A stretch of 7,164 bases of DNA, taken from a virus. Its lineage: Duplodnaviria; Heunggongvirae; Uroviricota; Caudoviricetes. The stretch lies in the IMG/VR virus record IMGVR_UViG_2778261085_000001, one strand, 5' to 3'. The notes under the pieces are model-generated. The model searched no databases. It saw only the letters and a list, made by a program, of their open reading frames with translations, and was not told the origin of the DNA. Every line of letters begins with the position of its first letter. Within the stretch, counting starts at the first letter, position 1. This document shows positions 1 to 7,164 of this stretch, piece by piece. The position numbers and the translations under genes were made by a program.

Positions 1-254
1 GTGCCTGGAAGGCCAGATTACGCGAGGGGGTGCCACCAGAGGCCATGCTGGATGGCGTGAGGCGTTACGCAAGATACCTTACGGCTACCGGGAAAACGGG
101 AACGGAATTTGTTCAGCGAGCGACGACGTTTTTTGGACCGGACCGGAATTTTGAAAACCCCTGGCTGCTCCCGGTAAGCGGCACGAACAACCAGCGTTGT
201 GTGAATCATATTTCTGAACCGGATACCGAAATTCCGCCGGGCTTCAGGGGGTAA
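1..254 (+). CDS. 3' end of a phage early-region protein of unknown function (5'-truncated by the window edge)
   Basis: The reading frame is open from position 3 with no upstream stop, so the gene starts before the window; the track's GTG at 30 is probably internal. Stop at 252-254. I do not recognise the family. Confidence 0.5.
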   Translation, partial: AWKARLREGVPPEAMLDGVRRYARYLTATGKTGTEFVQRATTFFGPDRNFENPWLLPVSGTNNQRCVNHISEPDTEIPPGFRG

Positions 255-296
255 GTGTTGATTTGAGGTTATGAAGTTATTTTCTCAGGAGAGTTT

Positions 297-698
297 ATGG
301 GGACTATTTATACCGAAGAACAGCGGGAAAGATTACAGCGTCATATCGTTGACCTTGTGCGTAAAAACGGGCGTATGACAATGCCACAACTGGCATCGGC
401 AACATATGCTTCACATGATTCCATTCGCCGGTACCTGAAGATGCTGGTGAGCCAGGGCGAAGTGTATGTTGTCAGCGGAAAAGGGGTATTTCTTTCAGAG
501 AGGGTTTACCGTGAATGGCTGGCAAGTTCGGCAAGAAAAGCAAGGGTTATCCGCAAACCAGCACAAAAACAGGGTAAGGCAGGAGCACAACCCTACGACC
601 GGCACCAGAACATAATTTGCCGTGAGTGCCGTCAGAGTGAGGTTATGCAGCGTGTACTGGCGTTCTATCAGGGAGATTTTCAGGAGGTGATGGAGTGA
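297..698 (+). CDS. Phage hypothetical protein, possibly a helix-turn-helix DNA-binding protein (133 aa)
   Basis: ATG at 297 follows an AGGAGAG SD at 287-293. The N-terminal half (TMPQLASATYASHDSIRRYLKMLVSQGEV) looks like a winged-helix/HTH segment, and the C-terminal CRECRQ is a possible metal-binding pair. The stop overlaps the next start (GTGA). Confidence 0.6.
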   Translation: MGTIYTEEQRERLQRHIVDLVRKNGRMTMPQLASATYASHDSIRRYLKMLVSQGEVYVVSGKGVFLSERVYREWLASSARKARVIRKPAQKQGKAGAQPYDRHQNIICRECRQSEVMQRVLAFYQGDFQEVME

Positions 699-991
699 GG
701 GTAAGGGTTTATATCGCTGGTCCGATGACCGGGTATAAAAATTTCAACCGTGAGGCGTTCCACAATGCGGAAGAGGAACTGAAACGGGAAGGGCATACCG
801 TCTTAAACCCGGCAGTACTTCCGGACGGACTGACTCAGTCGCAGTACATGGATATCTGCATGGCGATGATACGTTGCGTGGATGCGATTTACATGCTGAA
901 TGGCTGGCAGCGGTCGGCGGGTGCTAAGGCAGAACTGGCGCTGGCGGAGAAGCTGGGGCATGCGGTTATTTTACAGAAGGCGATGCAGTGA
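695..991 (+). CDS. DUF4406-like phage protein (nucleoside 2-deoxyribosyltransferase-like fold), 98 aa
   Basis: The N-terminal motif VYIAGPMTG followed by NFN/EAF matches my memory of the DUF4406 family common in enterobacterial prophages. GTG start overlaps the upstream stop, with a GGAGG SD about 10 nt upstream. Confidence 0.6.
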   Translation: MRVRVYIAGPMTGYKNFNREAFHNAEEELKREGHTVLNPAVLPDGLTQSQYMDICMAMIRCVDAIYMLNGWQRSAGAKAELALAEKLGHAVILQKAMQ

Positions 992-1170
992 ATATGTTCT
1001 GGATAATCAAAATTGAGCTGTTTGTTATTGTTTTACTTATCAGTGCATTTCTGGCAGCGGCTTTTATTATCTGGGAAAATCCTTTTCGACATATCAGCCC
1101 GCTGTTTGCAATCAGGGTGTTAATAGCATCGGTTGTCGTGGTGTGGTTAATTTGTTTTGCATTATCTTAA
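988..1170 (+). CDS. Small membrane protein with two predicted transmembrane segments (60 aa)
   Basis: Strongly hydrophobic sequence (FWIIKIELFVIVLLISAFLAAAFIIW and VLIASVVVVWLICFAL). GTG at 988 overlaps the previous stop (GTGA); ATG at 994 is an alternative start. Sits inside the co-oriented operon. Confidence 0.5.
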   Translation: MNMFWIIKIELFVIVLLISAFLAAAFIIWENPFRHISPLFAIRVLIASVVVVWLICFALS

Positions 1171-2926: not shown

Positions 2927-3085
2927 GAAGGAAACAAACAGAAACAACAATTGCCGTTATCTGTTGCCACCAATGACAAGTAAACGTATCACAGGCGAGC
3001 GCATTGCGCCGTTCTGACGCGCATAAGGTAGATCAGATTTCAGGAGCTGGCAATAAAAAGTTGGTGGAAAGTCTGATGCAGATGT

Positions 3086-3112
3086 GAAAAGACAGCCCCG
3101 AAAACGGGGCCG
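3086..3112 (-). terminator. Intrinsic terminator for the minus-strand 96-aa gene
   Basis: GCCCCG (3095-3100) pairs with CGGGGC (3105-3110) across an AAAA loop. On the minus-strand RNA the hairpin is followed by UGUCUUUUCA. It lies about 8 nt after the stop codon at 3119-3121. Confidence 0.7.
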
Positions 3113-3118
3113 GATTTA

Positions 3119-3409
3119 CTAAGCACCAATAATTCTGAAGATGTAATCCTTGAAGATGAGAGCCAGAGCTGCAGCAACAATAAACCACTGGAGTCGATCA
3201 AACTTGGTTTCCAGCTTGTTGAACCGTCTTTCGGTTTCTTGCTCCATTTTGTCGAGGCGCTTATCTATAACGTTCAGGCGTGTATCCATCTCACGACGGA
3301 GGTTATCAACGTTTTCTTGTGTTGCCAGGTGTTGCATGTTCTGCTGGCGATGCAACAAAGCATTCAGCACATCGCTGGTGCTGAACTCAATTTTTTTGTC
3401 GTCACTCAT
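3119..3409 (-). CDS. Coiled-coil protein with C-terminal transmembrane anchor (96 aa); possibly XhlA-like or DUF1640-like
   Basis: ATG at 3407-3409 (minus) has a strong AGGAGG SD 5 nt upstream. The central region is charged and heptad-like (RREMDTRLNVIDKRLDKMEQETERRFNKLETKFDRLQ); the C-terminus is hydrophobic (WFIVAAALALIFKDYIFRIIGA). It is a stand-alone opposite-strand gene with its own promoter and terminator. The family assignment is from memory and uncertain. Confidence 0.6.
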   Translation of the reverse strand: MSDDKKIEFSTSDVLNALLHRQQNMQHLATQENVDNLRREMDTRLNVIDKRLDKMEQETERRFNKLETKFDRLQWFIVAAALALIFKDYIFRIIGA

Positions 3410-3414
3410 GCTGG

Positions 3415-3453
3415 CCTCCTGTATAGGGAATCGTGGTACAGGAAAAACCTGTT
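3415..3453 (-). promoter_or_regulatory. 5'UTR with two mutually exclusive hairpins, one of which overlaps the SD of the 96-aa gene
   Basis: Plus-strand motifs are CCTGTA (3418-3423), TACAGG (3437-3442) and CCTGT (3448-3452). On the minus-strand mRNA this reads 5'-AACAGG-UUUUU-CCUGUA-(13 nt)-UACAGGAGG-CCAGC-AUG. The central CCUGUA can pair either upstream (SD free) or downstream with UACAGG (first half of the SD buried). Confidence 0.4.
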
Positions 3454-3459
3454 AAGTAA

Positions 3460-3488
3460 ATAGTAAAGTTAATCGCTTCACTCATCAA
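3460..3488 (-). promoter_or_regulatory. Putative sigma70-type promoter for the 96-aa minus-strand gene
   Basis: On the minus strand: -35 TTGATG (plus 3483-3488), 17-nt spacer, -10 TACTAT (plus 3460-3465). The predicted transcription start is near plus 3453, at the first UTR hairpin. Hexamer matching by eye only. Confidence 0.3.
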
Positions 3489-3508
3489 GAGAGGAAGCAC
3501 AGAAGCGG

Positions 3509-3538
3509 TTGACGACAACAGAAATCAGAGACAATATT
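3509..3538 (+). promoter_or_regulatory. Putative divergent sigma70-type promoter for the 3591 to 5668 gene block
   Basis: TTGACG at 3509-3514, 18-nt spacer, AATATT at 3533-3538. If real, transcription starts near 3545, which excludes the track's TTG start at 3537 and favours ATG 3591. Confidence 0.3.
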
Positions 3539-3590
3539 GCCGCACGCCAGCCTGAACAACTGGCACCTGCTGCGCCAGCAGAGAAAACAG

Positions 3591-3863
3591 ATGGCGCACC
3601 ACACCAAATTACACAATTCTGATACCGCCCCTGCCAGCAGATACGGGCGGCGTTCGCGCGCATTTAAAACCGACTGGTTCCAGCATGATCCATGCACTGA
3701 AGAGCAGGCAGAGTGGCTAATTCAGAACTACCGCAGACGTGGTTACGAGTTTCAGAAAGACCTCAGCCTCGACTTCCGACACTGGATAATCTCAGTCAGA
3801 CTGCCTTACTCTGAACGCCCACCGCGTCCGTCCCGCACATTCCAGCAACGCATCTGGAGGTAA
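3591..3863 (+). CDS. Basic hypothetical protein (90 aa) immediately upstream of the DUF968-like gene
   Basis: ATG at 3591 is in frame with the track ORF 3537-3863. The stop at 3861-3863 lies 1 nt before the next GTG start. Arg/Lys-rich; no family recognised. Start choice is uncertain because the local SD is weak (AGAGAAAA). Confidence 0.45.
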   Translation: MAHHTKLHNSDTAPASRYGRRSRAFKTDWFQHDPCTEEQAEWLIQNYRRRGYEFQKDLSLDFRHWIISVRLPYSERPPRPSRTFQQRIWR

Positions 3864-3864
3864 C

Positions 3865-4914
3865 GTGCGGGTATTGCTTCGACCTGTTCATGTACCGGAA
3901 CTTGGGCTGGTGGTCCTTAAACCTGGCCGTGAATCCATGCAGGTATTTCATAGCCCTCGAGTGCTGGTGGAGCCGGAACCGAAAAACATGCGCGGTCTGC
4001 CGTCCGGAGCTGTTCCTGCCGTTCGCCAGCCGCTGGCGGAAGATAAATCATTACTGCCATTTTTCAGCGATGAGCGGGTGATTCGTGCTGCTGGCGGCGC
4101 TGGTGCACTATCTGACTGGCTCCTGCGTCATGTCAAATCCTGCCAGTGGCCTCATGGTGACTATCATCACAGTGAAATCGTCATACATCGTTACGGTACC
4201 GGCGCGATGGTGTTGTGCTGGCACTGTGACAATCAACTGCGCGACCAGACCTCGGAATCGCTAGAGCAACTTGCTCATCAAAATCTGACAGCCTGGATGA
4301 TTGACGTCATCCGTCACGCAATGAATGGCACGCAGGAGCGGGAGTTATCGCTGGCTGAATTATCCTGGTGGGCGGTCTGCAATCAGGTGGCGGACGCGCT
4401 ACCGGAAGCAGTATTACGCCGTTCGCTGGGATTACCGGTGGAAAAAATCCGTTCCCTGTACCGCGAAAGCGACATCGTACCGGGAGAGCAGACAGCTACC
4501 AGCATACTGAAGCAGCGCACAAAAAATATTGCGCTACCACCTCACGCCCACCAGCAACAGAACGCACCACAGGAAAAGACGGTGGTCAGCATTGCCGTAG
4601 ATCCGGAGTCTCCGGAATCTTTCATGAAGCGACCTAAACGTCGCCGTTGGATAAATGAGAAATATACACGCTGGGTAAAGACACAGCCGTGTGCGTGCTG
4701 TGGTAAGCCAGCCGACGATCCCCATCACCTGATTGGTCATGGTCAGGGCGGAATGGGAACAAAATCCCACGATATTTTCACGCTACCGTTATGCCGGGAA
4801 CATCACAACGAACTTCATGCGGATCCGCTGGCGTTCGAAGAAAAGCATGGTTCCCAGGTTGATTTAATTTTTCGTTTTCTTGATCACGCCTTTGCAACCG
4901 GCGTGCTCGGGTAA
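3865..4914 (+). CDS. DUF968-like prophage protein with a C-terminal Cys/His-rich HNH-like motif (349 aa)
   Basis: GTG at 3865 follows a GGAGG SD at 3856-3860. The C-terminus carries CACCGKPADDPHHLIGHGQGG...LPLCREHHNELH, a zinc-finger/HNH-type arrangement. Length and position just upstream of rusA and Q resemble what I recall of E. coli Qin prophage YdfU, although Qin as I recall it has no rusA between them. Confidence 0.6.
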   Translation: MRVLLRPVHVPELGLVVLKPGRESMQVFHSPRVLVEPEPKNMRGLPSGAVPAVRQPLAEDKSLLPFFSDERVIRAAGGAGALSDWLLRHVKSCQWPHGDYHHSEIVIHRYGTGAMVLCWHCDNQLRDQTSESLEQLAHQNLTAWMIDVIRHAMNGTQERELSLAELSWWAVCNQVADALPEAVLRRSLGLPVEKIRSLYRESDIVPGEQTATSILKQRTKNIALPPHAHQQQNAPQEKTVVSIAVDPESPESFMKRPKRRRWINEKYTRWVKTQPCACCGKPADDPHHLIGHGQGGMGTKSHDIFTLPLCREHHNELHADPLAFEEKHGSQVDLIFRFLDHAFATGVLG

Positions 4915-4926
4915 AAGAGGTTACTG

Positions 4927-5298
4927 ATGCGTATAGAGTTTGTTTTGCCTTACCCGCCGACGGTAAACACCTACTGGCGACGTCGTGGCAGCACATATTT
5001 TGTATCAAAAGCCGGTGAGCGTTATCGCCGTGATGTGGCGCTCATTGTTCGCCAGCAGCGGCTGAAATTAAATCTGTCCGGAAGGCTGGCAATAAAAATT
5101 ACTGCAGAGCCACCGGATAAGCGCCGTCGTGACCTGGACAATATTCTGAAAGCACCACTGGATGCACTGACACATGCGGGGTTGCTTATCGACGACGAGC
5201 AGTTTGATGAAATTAATATTGTGCGCGGTCAGCGCGTACCTGGTGGTCGGCTGGGTGTGAAGATTTACGAAATTACAGGTGGTAACGATGGCGCGTGA
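4927..5298 (+). CDS. rusA: Crossover junction endodeoxyribonuclease RusA (Holliday junction resolvase), 123 aa
   Basis: ATG at 4927 has an AAGAGG SD. The protein shows clear similarity to E. coli RusA as I remember it, including the acidic catalytic block DKRRRDLDNILKAPLDALTHAGLLIDDEQF, with the conserved RRRDLDN and LDD elements. It sits just upstream of Q, as in lambdoid prophages. Confidence 0.85.
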   Translation: MRIEFVLPYPPTVNTYWRRRGSTYFVSKAGERYRRDVALIVRQQRLKLNLSGRLAIKITAEPPDKRRRDLDNILKAPLDALTHAGLLIDDEQFDEINIVRGQRVPGGRLGVKIYEITGGNDGA

Positions 5299-5668
5299 TA
5301 TTCAGATGGTTCTTGAGCGTTGGGGGGCATGGGCGGCTAGTGATAGCTCGGGTGTGGACTATTCACCTATAGCTGCCGGGTTTAAGGGACTTCTGCCCTA
5401 TACCAGTAAGAAACGCCTGGCTTGTTCAGATAGTGACGCATTAATTATTGAAGGTTGTCTTGCTTGTTTAAAGCAAAAAAGGCCTTATGAGCATTCGCTT
5501 CTTGTGGCACATTATTTATACAGGATATCCAAGCGCAAGATTGCAAAGGCGCGTTGGAAGGATGAGAAATTGATACGTATAGAGATACAGATGGCTGAAG
5601 GGTTTATCGACGGTTGCCTGAGTATGTTGGATGTAAGTTTAGAAATGGATGCCGAAGTGGAATCTTGA
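5288..5668 (+). CDS. Late-gene antitermination protein Q (Q-family of the E. coli cryptic-prophage type), 126 aa
   Basis: ATG at 5288 has an AGGTGG SD at 5277-5282, and the start overlaps the rusA stop by 11 nt. The N-terminus MARDIQMVLERWGAWAA and the motifs IAAGFKGL and MAEGFIDGCLSMLDVSLEMD closely resemble the prophage Q antiterminators (quuD-like) I recall. The track's GTG at 5279 is probably three codons too early. Confidence 0.8.
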   Translation: MARDIQMVLERWGAWAASDSSGVDYSPIAAGFKGLLPYTSKKRLACSDSDALIIEGCLACLKQKRPYEHSLLVAHYLYRISKRKIAKARWKDEKLIRIEIQMAEGFIDGCLSMLDVSLEMDAEVES

Positions 5669-5676
5669 AACCAGAC

Positions 5677-5694
5677 AGCCCGATTACTCGGGCT
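5677..5694. terminator. GC-rich hairpin between convergent Q and the minus-strand moron; candidate bidirectional terminator
   Basis: AGCCCGA (5677-5683) pairs with TCGGGCT (5688-5694) across a 4-nt loop, giving a 7-bp stem. The minus-gene stop codon (plus TTA at 5684-5686) lies in the loop. Flanking runs are only moderately T-rich, so efficiency is uncertain. Confidence 0.4.
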
Positions 5695-6694
5695 TATCTT
5701 CAACATCTTTCACATGTAAAATTACGGCGGACTTGATATCTCCATCAATGTGTTTGGCATTGATGCTTAAATGCACAGGCTTTCTTTCCCATTCAGCTCG
5801 CTGTAAGGCTTCTTTGTTCCCTGATTCATCAAGGAATATATCCTGAACAACGCAGGTCAAACGTTGATCAGAATCGACCTTTCGAACCTTAACTTTGAAG
5901 CTTTCGGGGTCGGTATTATTCACTTCTTCGATACGGTATATACCGTCTATTCTCATTTCAACTGAGCGCCGACGAGCATTTGTTACTAGCTCTTTTGCCG
6001 TTTCTGAATCTATTGTGACACCGTCAATTTCTGCTGAATCTGAACGCACGAAAGATTTAACCATGGTGGTTTTAGCGTCATAAGACATTCGATCCATATT
6101 GTCGAGTAGAGGTTTTTTAGCCACCATTTCTGAGATGATTTGGAGGCGTTTTGTTTCCTCCTGTGTCATCACTTGCATTGCGCGTAGGTGTTCTTTGTCG
6201 CCTTCTTTAGCAATTTCAGCCAACCGAGTATCTTTACGGTTATCCAGATAGCGTTTGAAGACGGTTACACCGCCCCATATAACGGCAGCACCGAGAACCG
6301 TAAATACAATCTCTGTGGCGTTCATTTTCCCTACCAGTTCGTGCGTAAGCTTGCTTAGGAAGCCATCAATGTTAATCTCTACAAGAGATGAACCTTGCTC
6401 TACTGTAACTTCAATTTCTAAAGCATCAAGTTCTTCTTTTGTTAGCCTGCGGACATCAGGAGTTCCGAACTTTGCTAGCGCATAAGACTTATTGAGTTGC
6501 GATTGCATTTCAACAAATCCTTTCATAACTGAAGGTGTGAGTGATTTGTTGAATTTTTCACCAGTCAACCTGATGGTTAGACTTGGCCAACCATTGAAAC
6601 TAATTTTTTCGGGTAAAGCTTGTCCGTTTAGGTAACGTTCAAGTAATTCAAAAGCTTGCTGTTCAGACTCAACGTCGTAATGTATTTCGTACAA
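5684..6694 (-). CDS. AT-rich moron: hypothetical protein with a central transmembrane helix (336 aa); function unknown, candidate phage-exclusion protein
   Basis: A long minus-strand ORF with a TTG start at 6692-6694. There is an in-frame stop five codons upstream and no ATG or GTG between, so TTG is the only possible start for the full-length ORF; a GAGGG SD lies 6 nt upstream. One clear hydrophobic segment (ATEIVFTVLGAAVIWGGVTVF) sits between two soluble charged domains. G+C in four 60-nt lines I counted by hand is 38-47 percent, against about 58 percent in two lines of the DUF968-like gene. It is not a porin: no signal peptide and no C-terminal Phe. Confidence 0.65.
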   Translation of the reverse strand: MYEIHYDVESEQQAFELLERYLNGQALPEKISFNGWPSLTIRLTGEKFNKSLTPSVMKGFVEMQSQLNKSYALAKFGTPDVRRLTKEELDALEIEVTVEQGSSLVEINIDGFLSKLTHELVGKMNATEIVFTVLGAAVIWGGVTVFKRYLDNRKDTRLAEIAKEGDKEHLRAMQVMTQEETKRLQIISEMVAKKPLLDNMDRMSYDAKTTMVKSFVRSDSAEIDGVTIDSETAKELVTNARRRSVEMRIDGIYRIEEVNNTDPESFKVKVRKVDSDQRLTCVVQDIFLDESGNKEALQRAEWERKPVHLSINAKHIDGDIKSAVILHVKDVEDKPE

Positions 6695-6730
6695 AGAAGT
6701 TCCCTCATTCTAAGACCTGTGTTAACTCAG

Positions 6731-6743
6731 CCAGCCTGGCTGG
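6731..6743. promoter_or_regulatory. Inverted repeat CCAGCC-t-GGCTGG in the leader/promoter region of the minus-strand moron; candidate operator
   Basis: Perfect 6-bp arms with a 1-nt spacer, about 40 bp upstream of the moron start codon. The spacer is too short for an RNA hairpin, so a dimeric protein-binding site is the more natural reading. Confidence 0.3.
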
Positions 6744-6866
6744 AATTGATTTCTTATTTTTACTGTACGTAGGAAAAATAAAGCAAAACTTGCTAAAAAT
6801 CACTAACGCGGTCCGCATTTTTTCGCTTAGTGTGTTAAGAGTGGTTACTTCGCTACACAGCTTAAG

Positions 6867-6888
6867 CTCGCCGTTAGGCGGGTTTTTT
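6867..6888 (+). terminator. Candidate intrinsic terminator or attenuator on the plus strand, upstream of the ORF starting at 7012
   Basis: Stem CTCGCC (6867-6872) pairs with GGCGGG (6877-6882), including one G-U pair, across a GTTA loop, followed by TTTTTT (6883-6888). A weaker hairpin plus T6 lies at 6808-6823. No plus-strand gene precedes it in the intergenic region, which fits a leader terminator of the lambda tR' type. Confidence 0.4.
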
Positions 6889-7011
6889 GTGCCCGAAAAG
6901 TGGTGCAGTACGTTAAACGCGCTGGTGGTTACGAATACCGGTTTTTCAGCTTGCTGGCTTTTCAGACAAGAGTTATTGGTATGTCACGTTAACCGGAATA
7001 GGGAAAAAGAC

Positions 7012-7164
7012 ATGCTAAAACAGCAGGATATGACCAAAACCGCCAGAGTGGTGTTTAATGAATTAAGCGTCACCGAACCGGCGACCGTCGGGGAAATTGC
7101 GCAGAATACTTACCTTTCACGCGAACGCTGCCAGTTAATACTGACCCAGCTTGTTATGGCGGGT
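7012..7164 (+). CDS. 5' end of a hypothetical protein, possibly a winged-helix DNA-binding protein (3'-truncated by the window edge)
   Basis: ATG at 7012 (alternative in-frame ATG at 7030 with a CAGGA SD) is open to the end of the window: MLKQQDMTKTARVVFNELSVTEPATVGEIAQNTYLSRERCQLILTQLVMAG. Only 51 codons are visible, which is why it is absent from the track. It is not hydrophobic, so it is not a holin. Confidence 0.45.
   Translation, partial: MLKQQDMTKTARVVFNELSVTEPATVGEIAQNTYLSRERCQLILTQLVMAG

Follow-up and report, generated by a model that had tools for sequence, protein, structure and literature searches.

A conserved 336-residue prophage protein family, convergent with antiterminator Q or carried behind phage repressors, as candidate lysogen-expressed accessory cargo

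Introduction

In the 7,164-nucleotide stretch of Caudoviricetes DNA analysed here (IMG/VR record IMGVR_UViG_2778261085_000001; hereafter the window), the gene for antiterminator Q is followed, tail to tail, by a gene on the opposite strand that encodes a protein of 336 amino acids (aa). A reading of the window made from the sequence alone, without database searches (hereafter the sequence-only reading), had singled this gene out as a candidate accessory or defence gene. Here, we describe the locus, the distribution of the gene and its relatives, and the predicted structure of its product, whose family, so far unrecognised, we place in the known category of prophage cargo expressed by the lysogen. 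The gene is very probably accessory cargo that works on the side of the lysogen; to the narrower reading that it encodes a single-protein exclusion or abortive-infection factor expressed in the lysogen, which we infer from context only, we give an even chance.

Results

The gene and its immediate surroundings

The open reading frame (ORF) described by the sequence-only reading was recovered exactly as claimed, with its minus-strand orientation, its 336 codons, its TTG start and a good Shine-Dalgarno (SD) sequence (Table 1). The TTG is the earliest possible start in frame after the upstream stop, the SD sequence GAGGG lies 7 nt 5′ of it, and 32 of the 33 distinct alleles of the Q-linked clade use TTG as well, a near-universal choice that suggests deliberately low translation. 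The 336-aa ORF is a real gene under strong purifying selection: against alleles of 86-95% protein identity, the ratio of nonsynonymous to synonymous substitution rates (dN/dS) is 0.02-0.035, with 63-74% of synonymous sites differing, and length is conserved across 82 close homologues of the protein.

The stop codon of Q (5668) and the 3′ end of the convergent gene (5684) are separated by a 15-nt gap, in agreement with the close spacing noted earlier. With a G+C content of 41.6% and 37.1% at third codon positions (GC3), the gene ranks lowest among all coding sequences (CDSs) in the window, which has 47.6% G+C as a whole; its upstream neighbours reach 45.4% (Q), 51.1% (RusA) and 53.9% (DUF968). 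The compositional contrast between the gene and these three upstream genes is thus real but modest. The sequence-only reading was right about the lower G+C and overstated its sharpness (38-47% against 58%); Q is also low.

Table 1. Features of the Q-proximal locus and of the 336-aa protein; positions are those of the window unless residues are given
Feature	Position	Strand	Details
Antiterminator Q, 82/QuuD-type, PF06530	5279-5668	plus	Pfam E 4.5e-50; PHROG 79
GC-rich hairpin AGCCCGA-nTnA-TCGGGCT	5677-5694	between Q and gene	Minus-strand scan match
CDS of the 336-aa protein (PHROG 6191 family)	5684-6694	minus	TTG start 6694-6692; TAA stop 5686-5684
N-terminal alpha/beta part of the protein	motif at residues 43-60		Invariant motif LTGEKFxxSLTPSVMKGF
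Hydrophobic helix of the protein	residues 128-146		Kyte-Doolittle 19-mer 1.89
Charged helices of the protein	residues 148-215		
OB-fold-like C-terminal barrel of the protein	residues ~246-330		
Cassette 5′ region	6695-6794	minus	SD 6706-6702; non-conserved hairpin 6727-6743; AT-rich ~6755-6794
Conserved non-coding block AAAAATCACTAACGCGGTCCGCATTTTTT...TTAGTGTGTTAAGAGTGGTTAC, with palindrome GCGGTCCGC	6795-6850	plus	~55 bp
Terminator-like hairpin with T6 run	6864-6890	plus	Fold energy -14.2 kcal/mol; U6 tail
Small ORF, 5′ part (in relatives annotated as hypothetical or as 'TrmB family transcriptional regulator')	7012-7164	plus	Cut by the window end

Relatives behind repressors and elsewhere

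Genomic context was surveyed in 101 loci taken from genomes and from IMG/VR. Outside the arrangement seen in the window, more distant relatives (at most 59% identity) lie directly 3′ of a prophage repressor and on the same strand. Such homologues stand behind repressors with helix-turn-helix (HTH) and S24 domains, or behind CI-type repressors, in Salmonella, Klebsiella and E. coli, the protein being listed in 466 index blocks. In a lambda-like E. coli prophage the gene order is cI, homologue, N remnant, ral, cIII, kil, gam, bet, exo, which places the homologue in the rexAB slot. Coliphage phi458 likewise has CI followed by the homologue, Orf11, which the papers on this phage do not treat. In Moraxella phage Mcat17, in a Treponema metagenome-assembled genome (MAG) and in several IMG/VR phages, HTH and Peptidase_S24 domains confirmed the upstream gene as such a repressor, and gaps of 42-59 nt separate repressor and homologue in two metagenomic lineages. 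Altogether, at least 12 different repressor types adjoin homologues, and in a P2-like prophage the homologue occupies the repressor operon convergently with tail gene D. This recurrence of relatives in the lambda rexAB slot of many unrelated temperate phages strengthens the earlier guess at a defence function.

In one of these metagenomic lineages, two contigs (L109 and L110, positions 3007-5002) both carry a 311-aa HTH plus S24 repressor followed by a 333-aa homologue, flanked by different replication modules, lambda P/DnaT in one case and Rep_O/DnaC-like in the other; the same pair beside two replication modules implies that repressor and homologue move as a mosaic unit. In two further loci, Pasteurella phage Pmp14 (L004, 4945-5913) and Vreelandella titanicae (L017, upstream of 6001), the neighbours are of defence or toxin type: the upstream same-strand gene encodes a reverse transcriptase of the RVT_1 type, labelled 'polymerase', or else a Fic/Doc protein, so that, judging by these contexts, the family can apparently sit in small prophage defence clusters. 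A methyltransferase is also found as a neighbour. No conserved partner gene was found in the 101 loci, and the lack of a conserved neighbour implies that the protein works by itself or together with factors of the host or a phage.

These placements also bear on whether the gene might be an ordinary replication, morphogenesis or lysis gene that lacks an annotation, as could be argued from the fact that its PHROG was built from phage genomes and from Mu-like prophages, in which the gene stands just 5′ of lysis and head genes on the same strand. We regard this as very improbable. The gene in the window is oriented opposite to all flanking lytic genes, it is missing from closely related prophages, only three of 50,697 deposited phage genomes hold a relative, a distant one in each case, unrelated phage types carry it at different positions, and its neighbours include no conserved structural or replication genes.

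The junction with Q

Upstream of Q the window encodes RusA and, further upstream, the DUF968/HNH protein. An arrangement like that of the window recurs in 51 of the 101 surveyed loci, where a homologue 70-100% identical to the window protein is convergent with Q and the two stops are 5-23 bp apart; the few members of this clade (at least 70% identity) that were not scored as Q-convergent are partly ORF-calling artefacts. Across the 51 loci, the identity of Q tracks that of the 336-aa homologue (r = 0.67).

The two genes share a GC-rich hairpin whose 5′ arm and loop hold the last three codons of the gene (KPE) and its stop codon, the latter in the loop. Folding energies are -16.2 kcal/mol for the minus strand (z -3.95) and -13.2 kcal/mol for the plus strand (z -4.67). 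The stem is unchanged in all 24 distinct Q-convergent junctions, with diverging flanks and synonymous sites, and the KPE tail is confined to the Q-convergent clade, being absent from homologues in other contexts. Because synonymous positions within the stem are invariant and other synonymous sites are near saturation, the hairpin is constrained at the nucleotide level. It is a probable terminator for the gene, possibly a bidirectional one.

Convergence, co-divergence and the invariant shared hairpin together lead us to regard Q and the gene, as judged from their sequences, as an old module and not a recent insertion. The separate acquisition in this prophage that the sequence-only reading had deduced from base composition is therefore not upheld, given that the gene co-diverges with Q and shares the invariant hairpin at the junction.

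The same observations could be taken to mean that the gene regulates the phage's own lysis-lysogeny decision or late timing, either through its protein, acting on the repressor, Q or host factors, or through convergent transcription and a hairpin that dampen Q, much as the lambda paQ antisense RNA dampens Q expression, and so hold the late genes silent. The gene indeed adjoins one of the two master regulators, cI or Q; among Q-linked members, it and Q have diverged together and the invariant hairpin overlaps its stop codon; and it shares the rex slot with lambda RexA, which has been reported to influence the lysis-lysogeny switch. Nevertheless, we consider a regulatory role distinctly unlikely. 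Phage PhiR5_1 and at least 135 E. coli genomes have closely related Q genes with identical downstream blocks and do without the gene. The association with at least 12 unrelated repressor types, together with P2-like and Mu-like phages that have neither Q nor a lambda-type cI, makes a specific regulatory partner unlikely, and the strong constraint on the whole 336-aa protein implies that the protein itself matters, not only the act of transcription.

Occupancy of the slot and the displaced downstream block

In phage PhiR5_1, a related Q is present and homology to the window resumes directly at position 6795; this jump defines the extra segment as approximately 5669-6794, comprising the hairpin, the CDS and a 5′ region of 100 bp. 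Among 5,426 complete E. coli genomes, 96 carry the gene, always as a single chromosomal copy, and 79 of these 96 have the whole arrangement of Q, gene and downstream region. The empty site, represented by an artificial query in which Q was joined to 6795-7164, had contiguous matches in 135 or more complete E. coli genomes. Comparison of related prophages thus reveals a variably occupied slot, in keeping with the earlier description of the gene as an accessory moron inserted after Q, ahead of the region to which Q is otherwise joined. Variable presence among related phages and a composition unlike that of the neighbours, the latter differing modestly, are both features of morons, and both are found here.

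The 5′ region of the cassette, of about 100 bp, is AT-rich and conserved, as an alignment of 28 distinct upstream regions indicated, and it is missing from phages with the empty site. The cassette promoter presumably lies within its AT-rich part (~6755-6794). Several hand-picked hexamer pairs considered as promoters were rejected as too weak.

The non-coding block that begins at 6795 is more conserved than the CDS in all Q-convergent loci, across genera, and in phages without the cassette (PhiR5_1) only a few nucleotides separate it from the Q stop. A search of Rfam returned nothing around the locus, this block included. By analogy with other lambdoid phages, the block is probably the Q-dependent late promoter together with the Q-loading region, here displaced from Q by about 1.1 kb. 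In lambdoid late operons, Q-modified polymerase reads through the tR′ terminator, and the hairpin at 6864-6890 resembles such a terminator and probably has the same role.

Family and database searches

All public sources label the 336-aa protein 'hypothetical'. Its family had not been recognised by the sequence-only reading, and the searches agree: the only match was to PHROG 6191 ('unknown function'), over the full length (E 8.4e-143; residues 3-334 on positions 5-337 of the 338-position profile). Nothing in Pfam or NCBIfam exceeded the curated cut-offs for this protein, the sub-threshold chance matches being FNIII-A_GpJ (17.8 bits, cut-off 27) and MetS (15.6 bits, cut-off 70), and it matches no housekeeping or structural family. 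Ten longer or more divergent members scanned against Pfam, NCBIfam and PADLOC likewise gave no match above threshold, and a profile search of PDB sequences returned chance matches only (E at least 0.04). Defence systems described after 2023 were compared via the literature.

An exhaustive profile search put the family at 1,407 clusters at 50% identity, of which 506 had E values below 1e-30. Nearly all members are full-length, with 320-350 aa and typically about 335 aa. Their hosts include Enterobacterales, Halomonadaceae, Acinetobacter, Moraxella and Pasteurella, with distant matches in Treponema MAGs.

Predicted fold and the hydrophobic helix

The full-length AlphaFold model is confident and compact, with a predicted TM-score (pTM) of 0.83. 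Its C-terminal domain is a five-stranded closed beta-barrel that can be superposed on known OB-folds, with periplasmic metal binders and the glycan-binding B subunits of toxins among the matches. The remaining ~245 residues, about three quarters of the protein, have no match in the PDB, and a Foldseek search of BFVD returned two weak uncharacterised matches (TM-score 0.2-0.3) plus OB-folds. When residues 1-124 were modelled alone, the result was poor, with a predicted local distance difference test score (pLDDT) of 68 and a pTM of 0.50.

The hydrophobic helix is conserved, rich in glycine and alanine, and rich in small-xxx-small pairs. Its Kyte-Doolittle (KD) value exceeds the 1.6 rule, yet the Hessa-scale sum of its best 19-mer is +2.5 kcal/mol (family median +2.7; 0 or below in 4% of 214 members). 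References scored in the same way gave 0.0 for lambda RexB, -4.6 for a 60-aa ORF elsewhere in the window, and +7.5 to +11 for soluble controls. While the central hydrophobic helix seen by the sequence-only reading is thus present, the single transmembrane (TM) span assigned to it is doubtful, as its marginal sum falls between those of true TM segments and soluble proteins. Lysine and arginine residues are biased towards the C-terminal side of the helix (4.0 versus 1.9 on the N-terminal side; C above N in 169 of the 214 members), so that, if the helix spans the membrane, the C-terminal OB-fold part would be cytoplasmic. With the C-terminus inside, the 125-aa N-terminus would in turn need export, and the protein has no signal peptide.

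Coevolution was analysed by mean-field direct coupling analysis of 214 members (effective number of sequences, Meff, 168), a noisy basis from which only clustered, register-consistent signals were used. The analysis recovers sensible pairs within domains. Couplings 44-220 and 42-222 are in exact antiparallel register, nine couplings connect residues 42-109 with residues 218-223, and couplings between the helix and the N-terminal part occur at about twice the expected rate. Pairing of the strand at 220-223 with that at 38-44 would place the chain on either side of the helix on the same side of the membrane. Together, the model and these couplings indicate one integrated compact fold in which the helix is predicted to be buried or monotopic. 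The earlier picture of two soluble domains split by the helix is not supported, in view of the compact full-length model, the poor model of residues 1-124 and the couplings across the helix. A membrane-active state of the helix is nonetheless possible, its hydrophobicity being far above that of soluble controls.

The predicted fold is also relevant to a role in lysogenic conversion, in which the protein would alter host physiology, the envelope, stress tolerance or virulence in the manner of bor, lom and iss, with the OB-fold binding a host ligand and the hydrophobic helix providing membrane association. We consider this unlikely, even though iss occurs in the same prophage type in avian pathogenic E. 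coli (APEC) O78, the Q-to-lysis and immunity regions carry such cargo, secreted or lipoprotein morons adjoin the homologues in several loci, and the OB-fold matches just mentioned are of a suitable kind. The absence of a signal peptide speaks against a conversion factor, as does the charge bias, which in a membrane-spanning protein would leave the OB-fold part cytoplasmic. The presence of the gene in commensal, APEC and clinical strains alike could be read in favour of conversion. The family as a whole, however, spans hosts of very different lifestyles, from Enterobacterales to Treponema MAGs, which points to a function centred on the phage rather than the niche, and the strongest positional tie is to the repressor operon, where exclusion genes classically reside.

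Other features of the window

Downstream of the small ORF that is cut by the window end, relatives encode a DNA methyltransferase, a tRNA and lysis genes, and the region 7012-7164 was matched in Stx-converting phages and in phiP27. A toxin-antitoxin pair formed by the 336-aa gene and this small ORF was considered and rejected, since the ORF also occurs in phages without the gene.

A second opposite-strand cargo slot lies at 3026-3545, with an ORF on the minus strand (3119-3409) for a 96-aa coiled-coil protein with a hydrophobic C-terminal tail. Its matches are weak (PHROG 'hemolysin'-like; PADLOC PDC-S32, E 0.009). At this place the prophage of E. coli PapRG-04-4, otherwise 96-97% identical, holds a different segment of 835 bp with hokD, which encodes a Hok/Gef toxin. 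Positions 254-593 of the window fail to align with the PapRG-04-4 prophage, which points to a mosaic replacement near the start of a DUF977-like gene. The 60-aa ORF used above as a reference (988-1170, plus strand) is almost wholly hydrophobic, with a KD value of 2.92 besides its Hessa-scale sum of -4.6 kcal/mol; it encodes a small membrane protein of the early or nin-like region that is annotated as hypothetical in a related genome.

Discussion

The feature that the two main placements of this gene appear to have in common is expression from the prophage. In the Q-linked lineage, the gene forms a self-contained cassette that brings along a 5′ region, a weak TTG start and a probable hairpin terminator, and that stands tail to tail with Q and between Q and the probable late promoter region. 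Most other lineages carry the gene in the repressor operon, immediately 3′ of cI. Expression in the lysogen would follow from either placement. Both would also provide for shut-off during lytic growth, behind cI through the loss of pRM transcription, and beside Q through head-on transcription, in which transcription through Q collides with the gene. Such a pattern, on in the lysogen and off in lytic growth, is what would be expected of a function that serves the lysogen and is potentially harmful to the phage's own development. Exclusion and abortive-infection genes are the classical occupants of these slots, and exclusion of other phages is accordingly the reading that we prefer. The sequence-only reading had offered a similar guess, of which the contextual part has gained from the relatives behind cI-type repressors, and the defence function itself found no match in PADLOC or in the literature.

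How exclusion might work can be sketched from the predicted fold. The conserved OB-fold, with its basic NARRR patch (N239, A240, R241, R248), would sense a phage nucleic acid or protein, and the helix, hidden inside the fold at rest, would be the effector, through association with or insertion into the membrane, or through oligomerisation, leading to abortive infection or blocked entry. We think this pairing of an OB-fold sensor with a hydrophobic-helix effector rather unlikely to be correct. A sharper version, a 'one-protein Rex' in which a compact cytoplasmic OB-fold sensor, once activated, would free the buried helix, which would then enter the inner membrane or oligomerise there and cause its collapse, we find just as doubtful; on that proposal, placement behind cI, or head-on to Q with a shared terminator, would represent two ways to turn the killer off during the phage's own lytic growth.

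The closest parallel in genetic arrangement is lambda RexA/RexB. Relatives of the 336-aa gene sit, like rexAB, directly 3′ of cI on the same strand and before the pL/N region, and both are dispensable cargo that is variably present in temperate phages. A ligand-binding part combined with a hydrophobic element would, moreover, parallel the RexA sensor and the RexB membrane effector. Unlike the single gene described here, however, Rex is made of two genes; the copy in the window is convergent with Q and not in the cI operon; and RexB has clear TM segments, compared with one marginal hydrophobic helix in the 336-aa protein. Homology to either Rex protein was rejected by hhalign, which gave a profile of 39 family sequences a probability of 0.06% with RexA and 0.15% with RexB.

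As a single prophage-borne gene that would protect the lysogen, the 336-aa gene would fall into the same class as P22/lambda SieB, P22 SieA, BstA, HepS, GiPD474 and SNIPE, which often occur close to the repressor or at variable sites. In SNIPE, a membrane anchor is joined to a DNA-binding part (PMC13190303), and BstA adjoins the repressor locus (PMC8585504). Membership in three of these systems is excluded by domain content: the 336-aa protein has neither the DUF4041 and GIY-YIG nuclease of SNIPE, nor the HEPN nuclease of HepS, nor the ATPase of GiPD474. With OB-fold proteins such as SSB/PriB, CusF/SilF and the B subunits of AB5 toxins, identity is 7-15% and there is no relationship at the sequence level; the barrel, moreover, accounts for just one quarter of the 336-aa protein. 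The gene resembles the morons found between Q and the lysis genes of lambdoid prophages (stx, bor, tRNA/methyltransferase cargo) in its insertion in the late regulatory region, probably as an independent transcription unit with a terminator of its own, in its variable presence and in its lower G+C. Classical morons, however, lie downstream of pR′ on the same strand and are co-transcribed with the late genes, whereas the 336-aa gene lies between Q and its presumed target, ahead of the putative pR′ block and in the opposite orientation, and is tightly linked to Q, with which it co-diverges.

Several observations weigh against exclusion of other phages as the function. The PADLOC-DB v2 defence models matched with 0 families at E values up to 1, no catalytic motif is visible in the 336-aa protein, and we found no paper that names the RefSeq accessions or the PHROG identifier. 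A consensus scan of 5500-7164 gave no sigma-70 match of at least 9/12 and thus placed neither the cassette promoter nor pR′, so that we infer expression in the lysogen from position only. In Mu-like prophages the homologue is on the strand of the lytic genes, just before lysis or head genes, a poor fit with strictly lysogeny-only expression. Genes in the rex slot can tune the lysis-lysogeny switch instead of excluding phages, as has been reported for lambda RexA. Finally, the coevolution signal behind the predicted fold is noisy, its effective sample being about 168 sequences.

Slots of this kind often hold prophage genes without an assigned function, and if it proved to have no phenotype, this one would be one of many such conserved genes. 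As a candidate, however, it is unusually well defined, widespread and constrained, and its genetic arrangement is distinctive. The Q-linked form stands out in that Q is parted from its presumed target promoter by 1.1 kb and the two genes have co-diverged across genera, making the Q junction a testable case of convergent transcription that couples a cargo gene to the lysis-lysogeny state. If exclusion of other phages is indeed its function, the family would add to the known repertoire a widespread defence protein without known homologues, comprising 1,407 clusters at 50% identity, and its placement directly behind a repressor, or tail to tail with Q, would provide a rule for finding similar genes.

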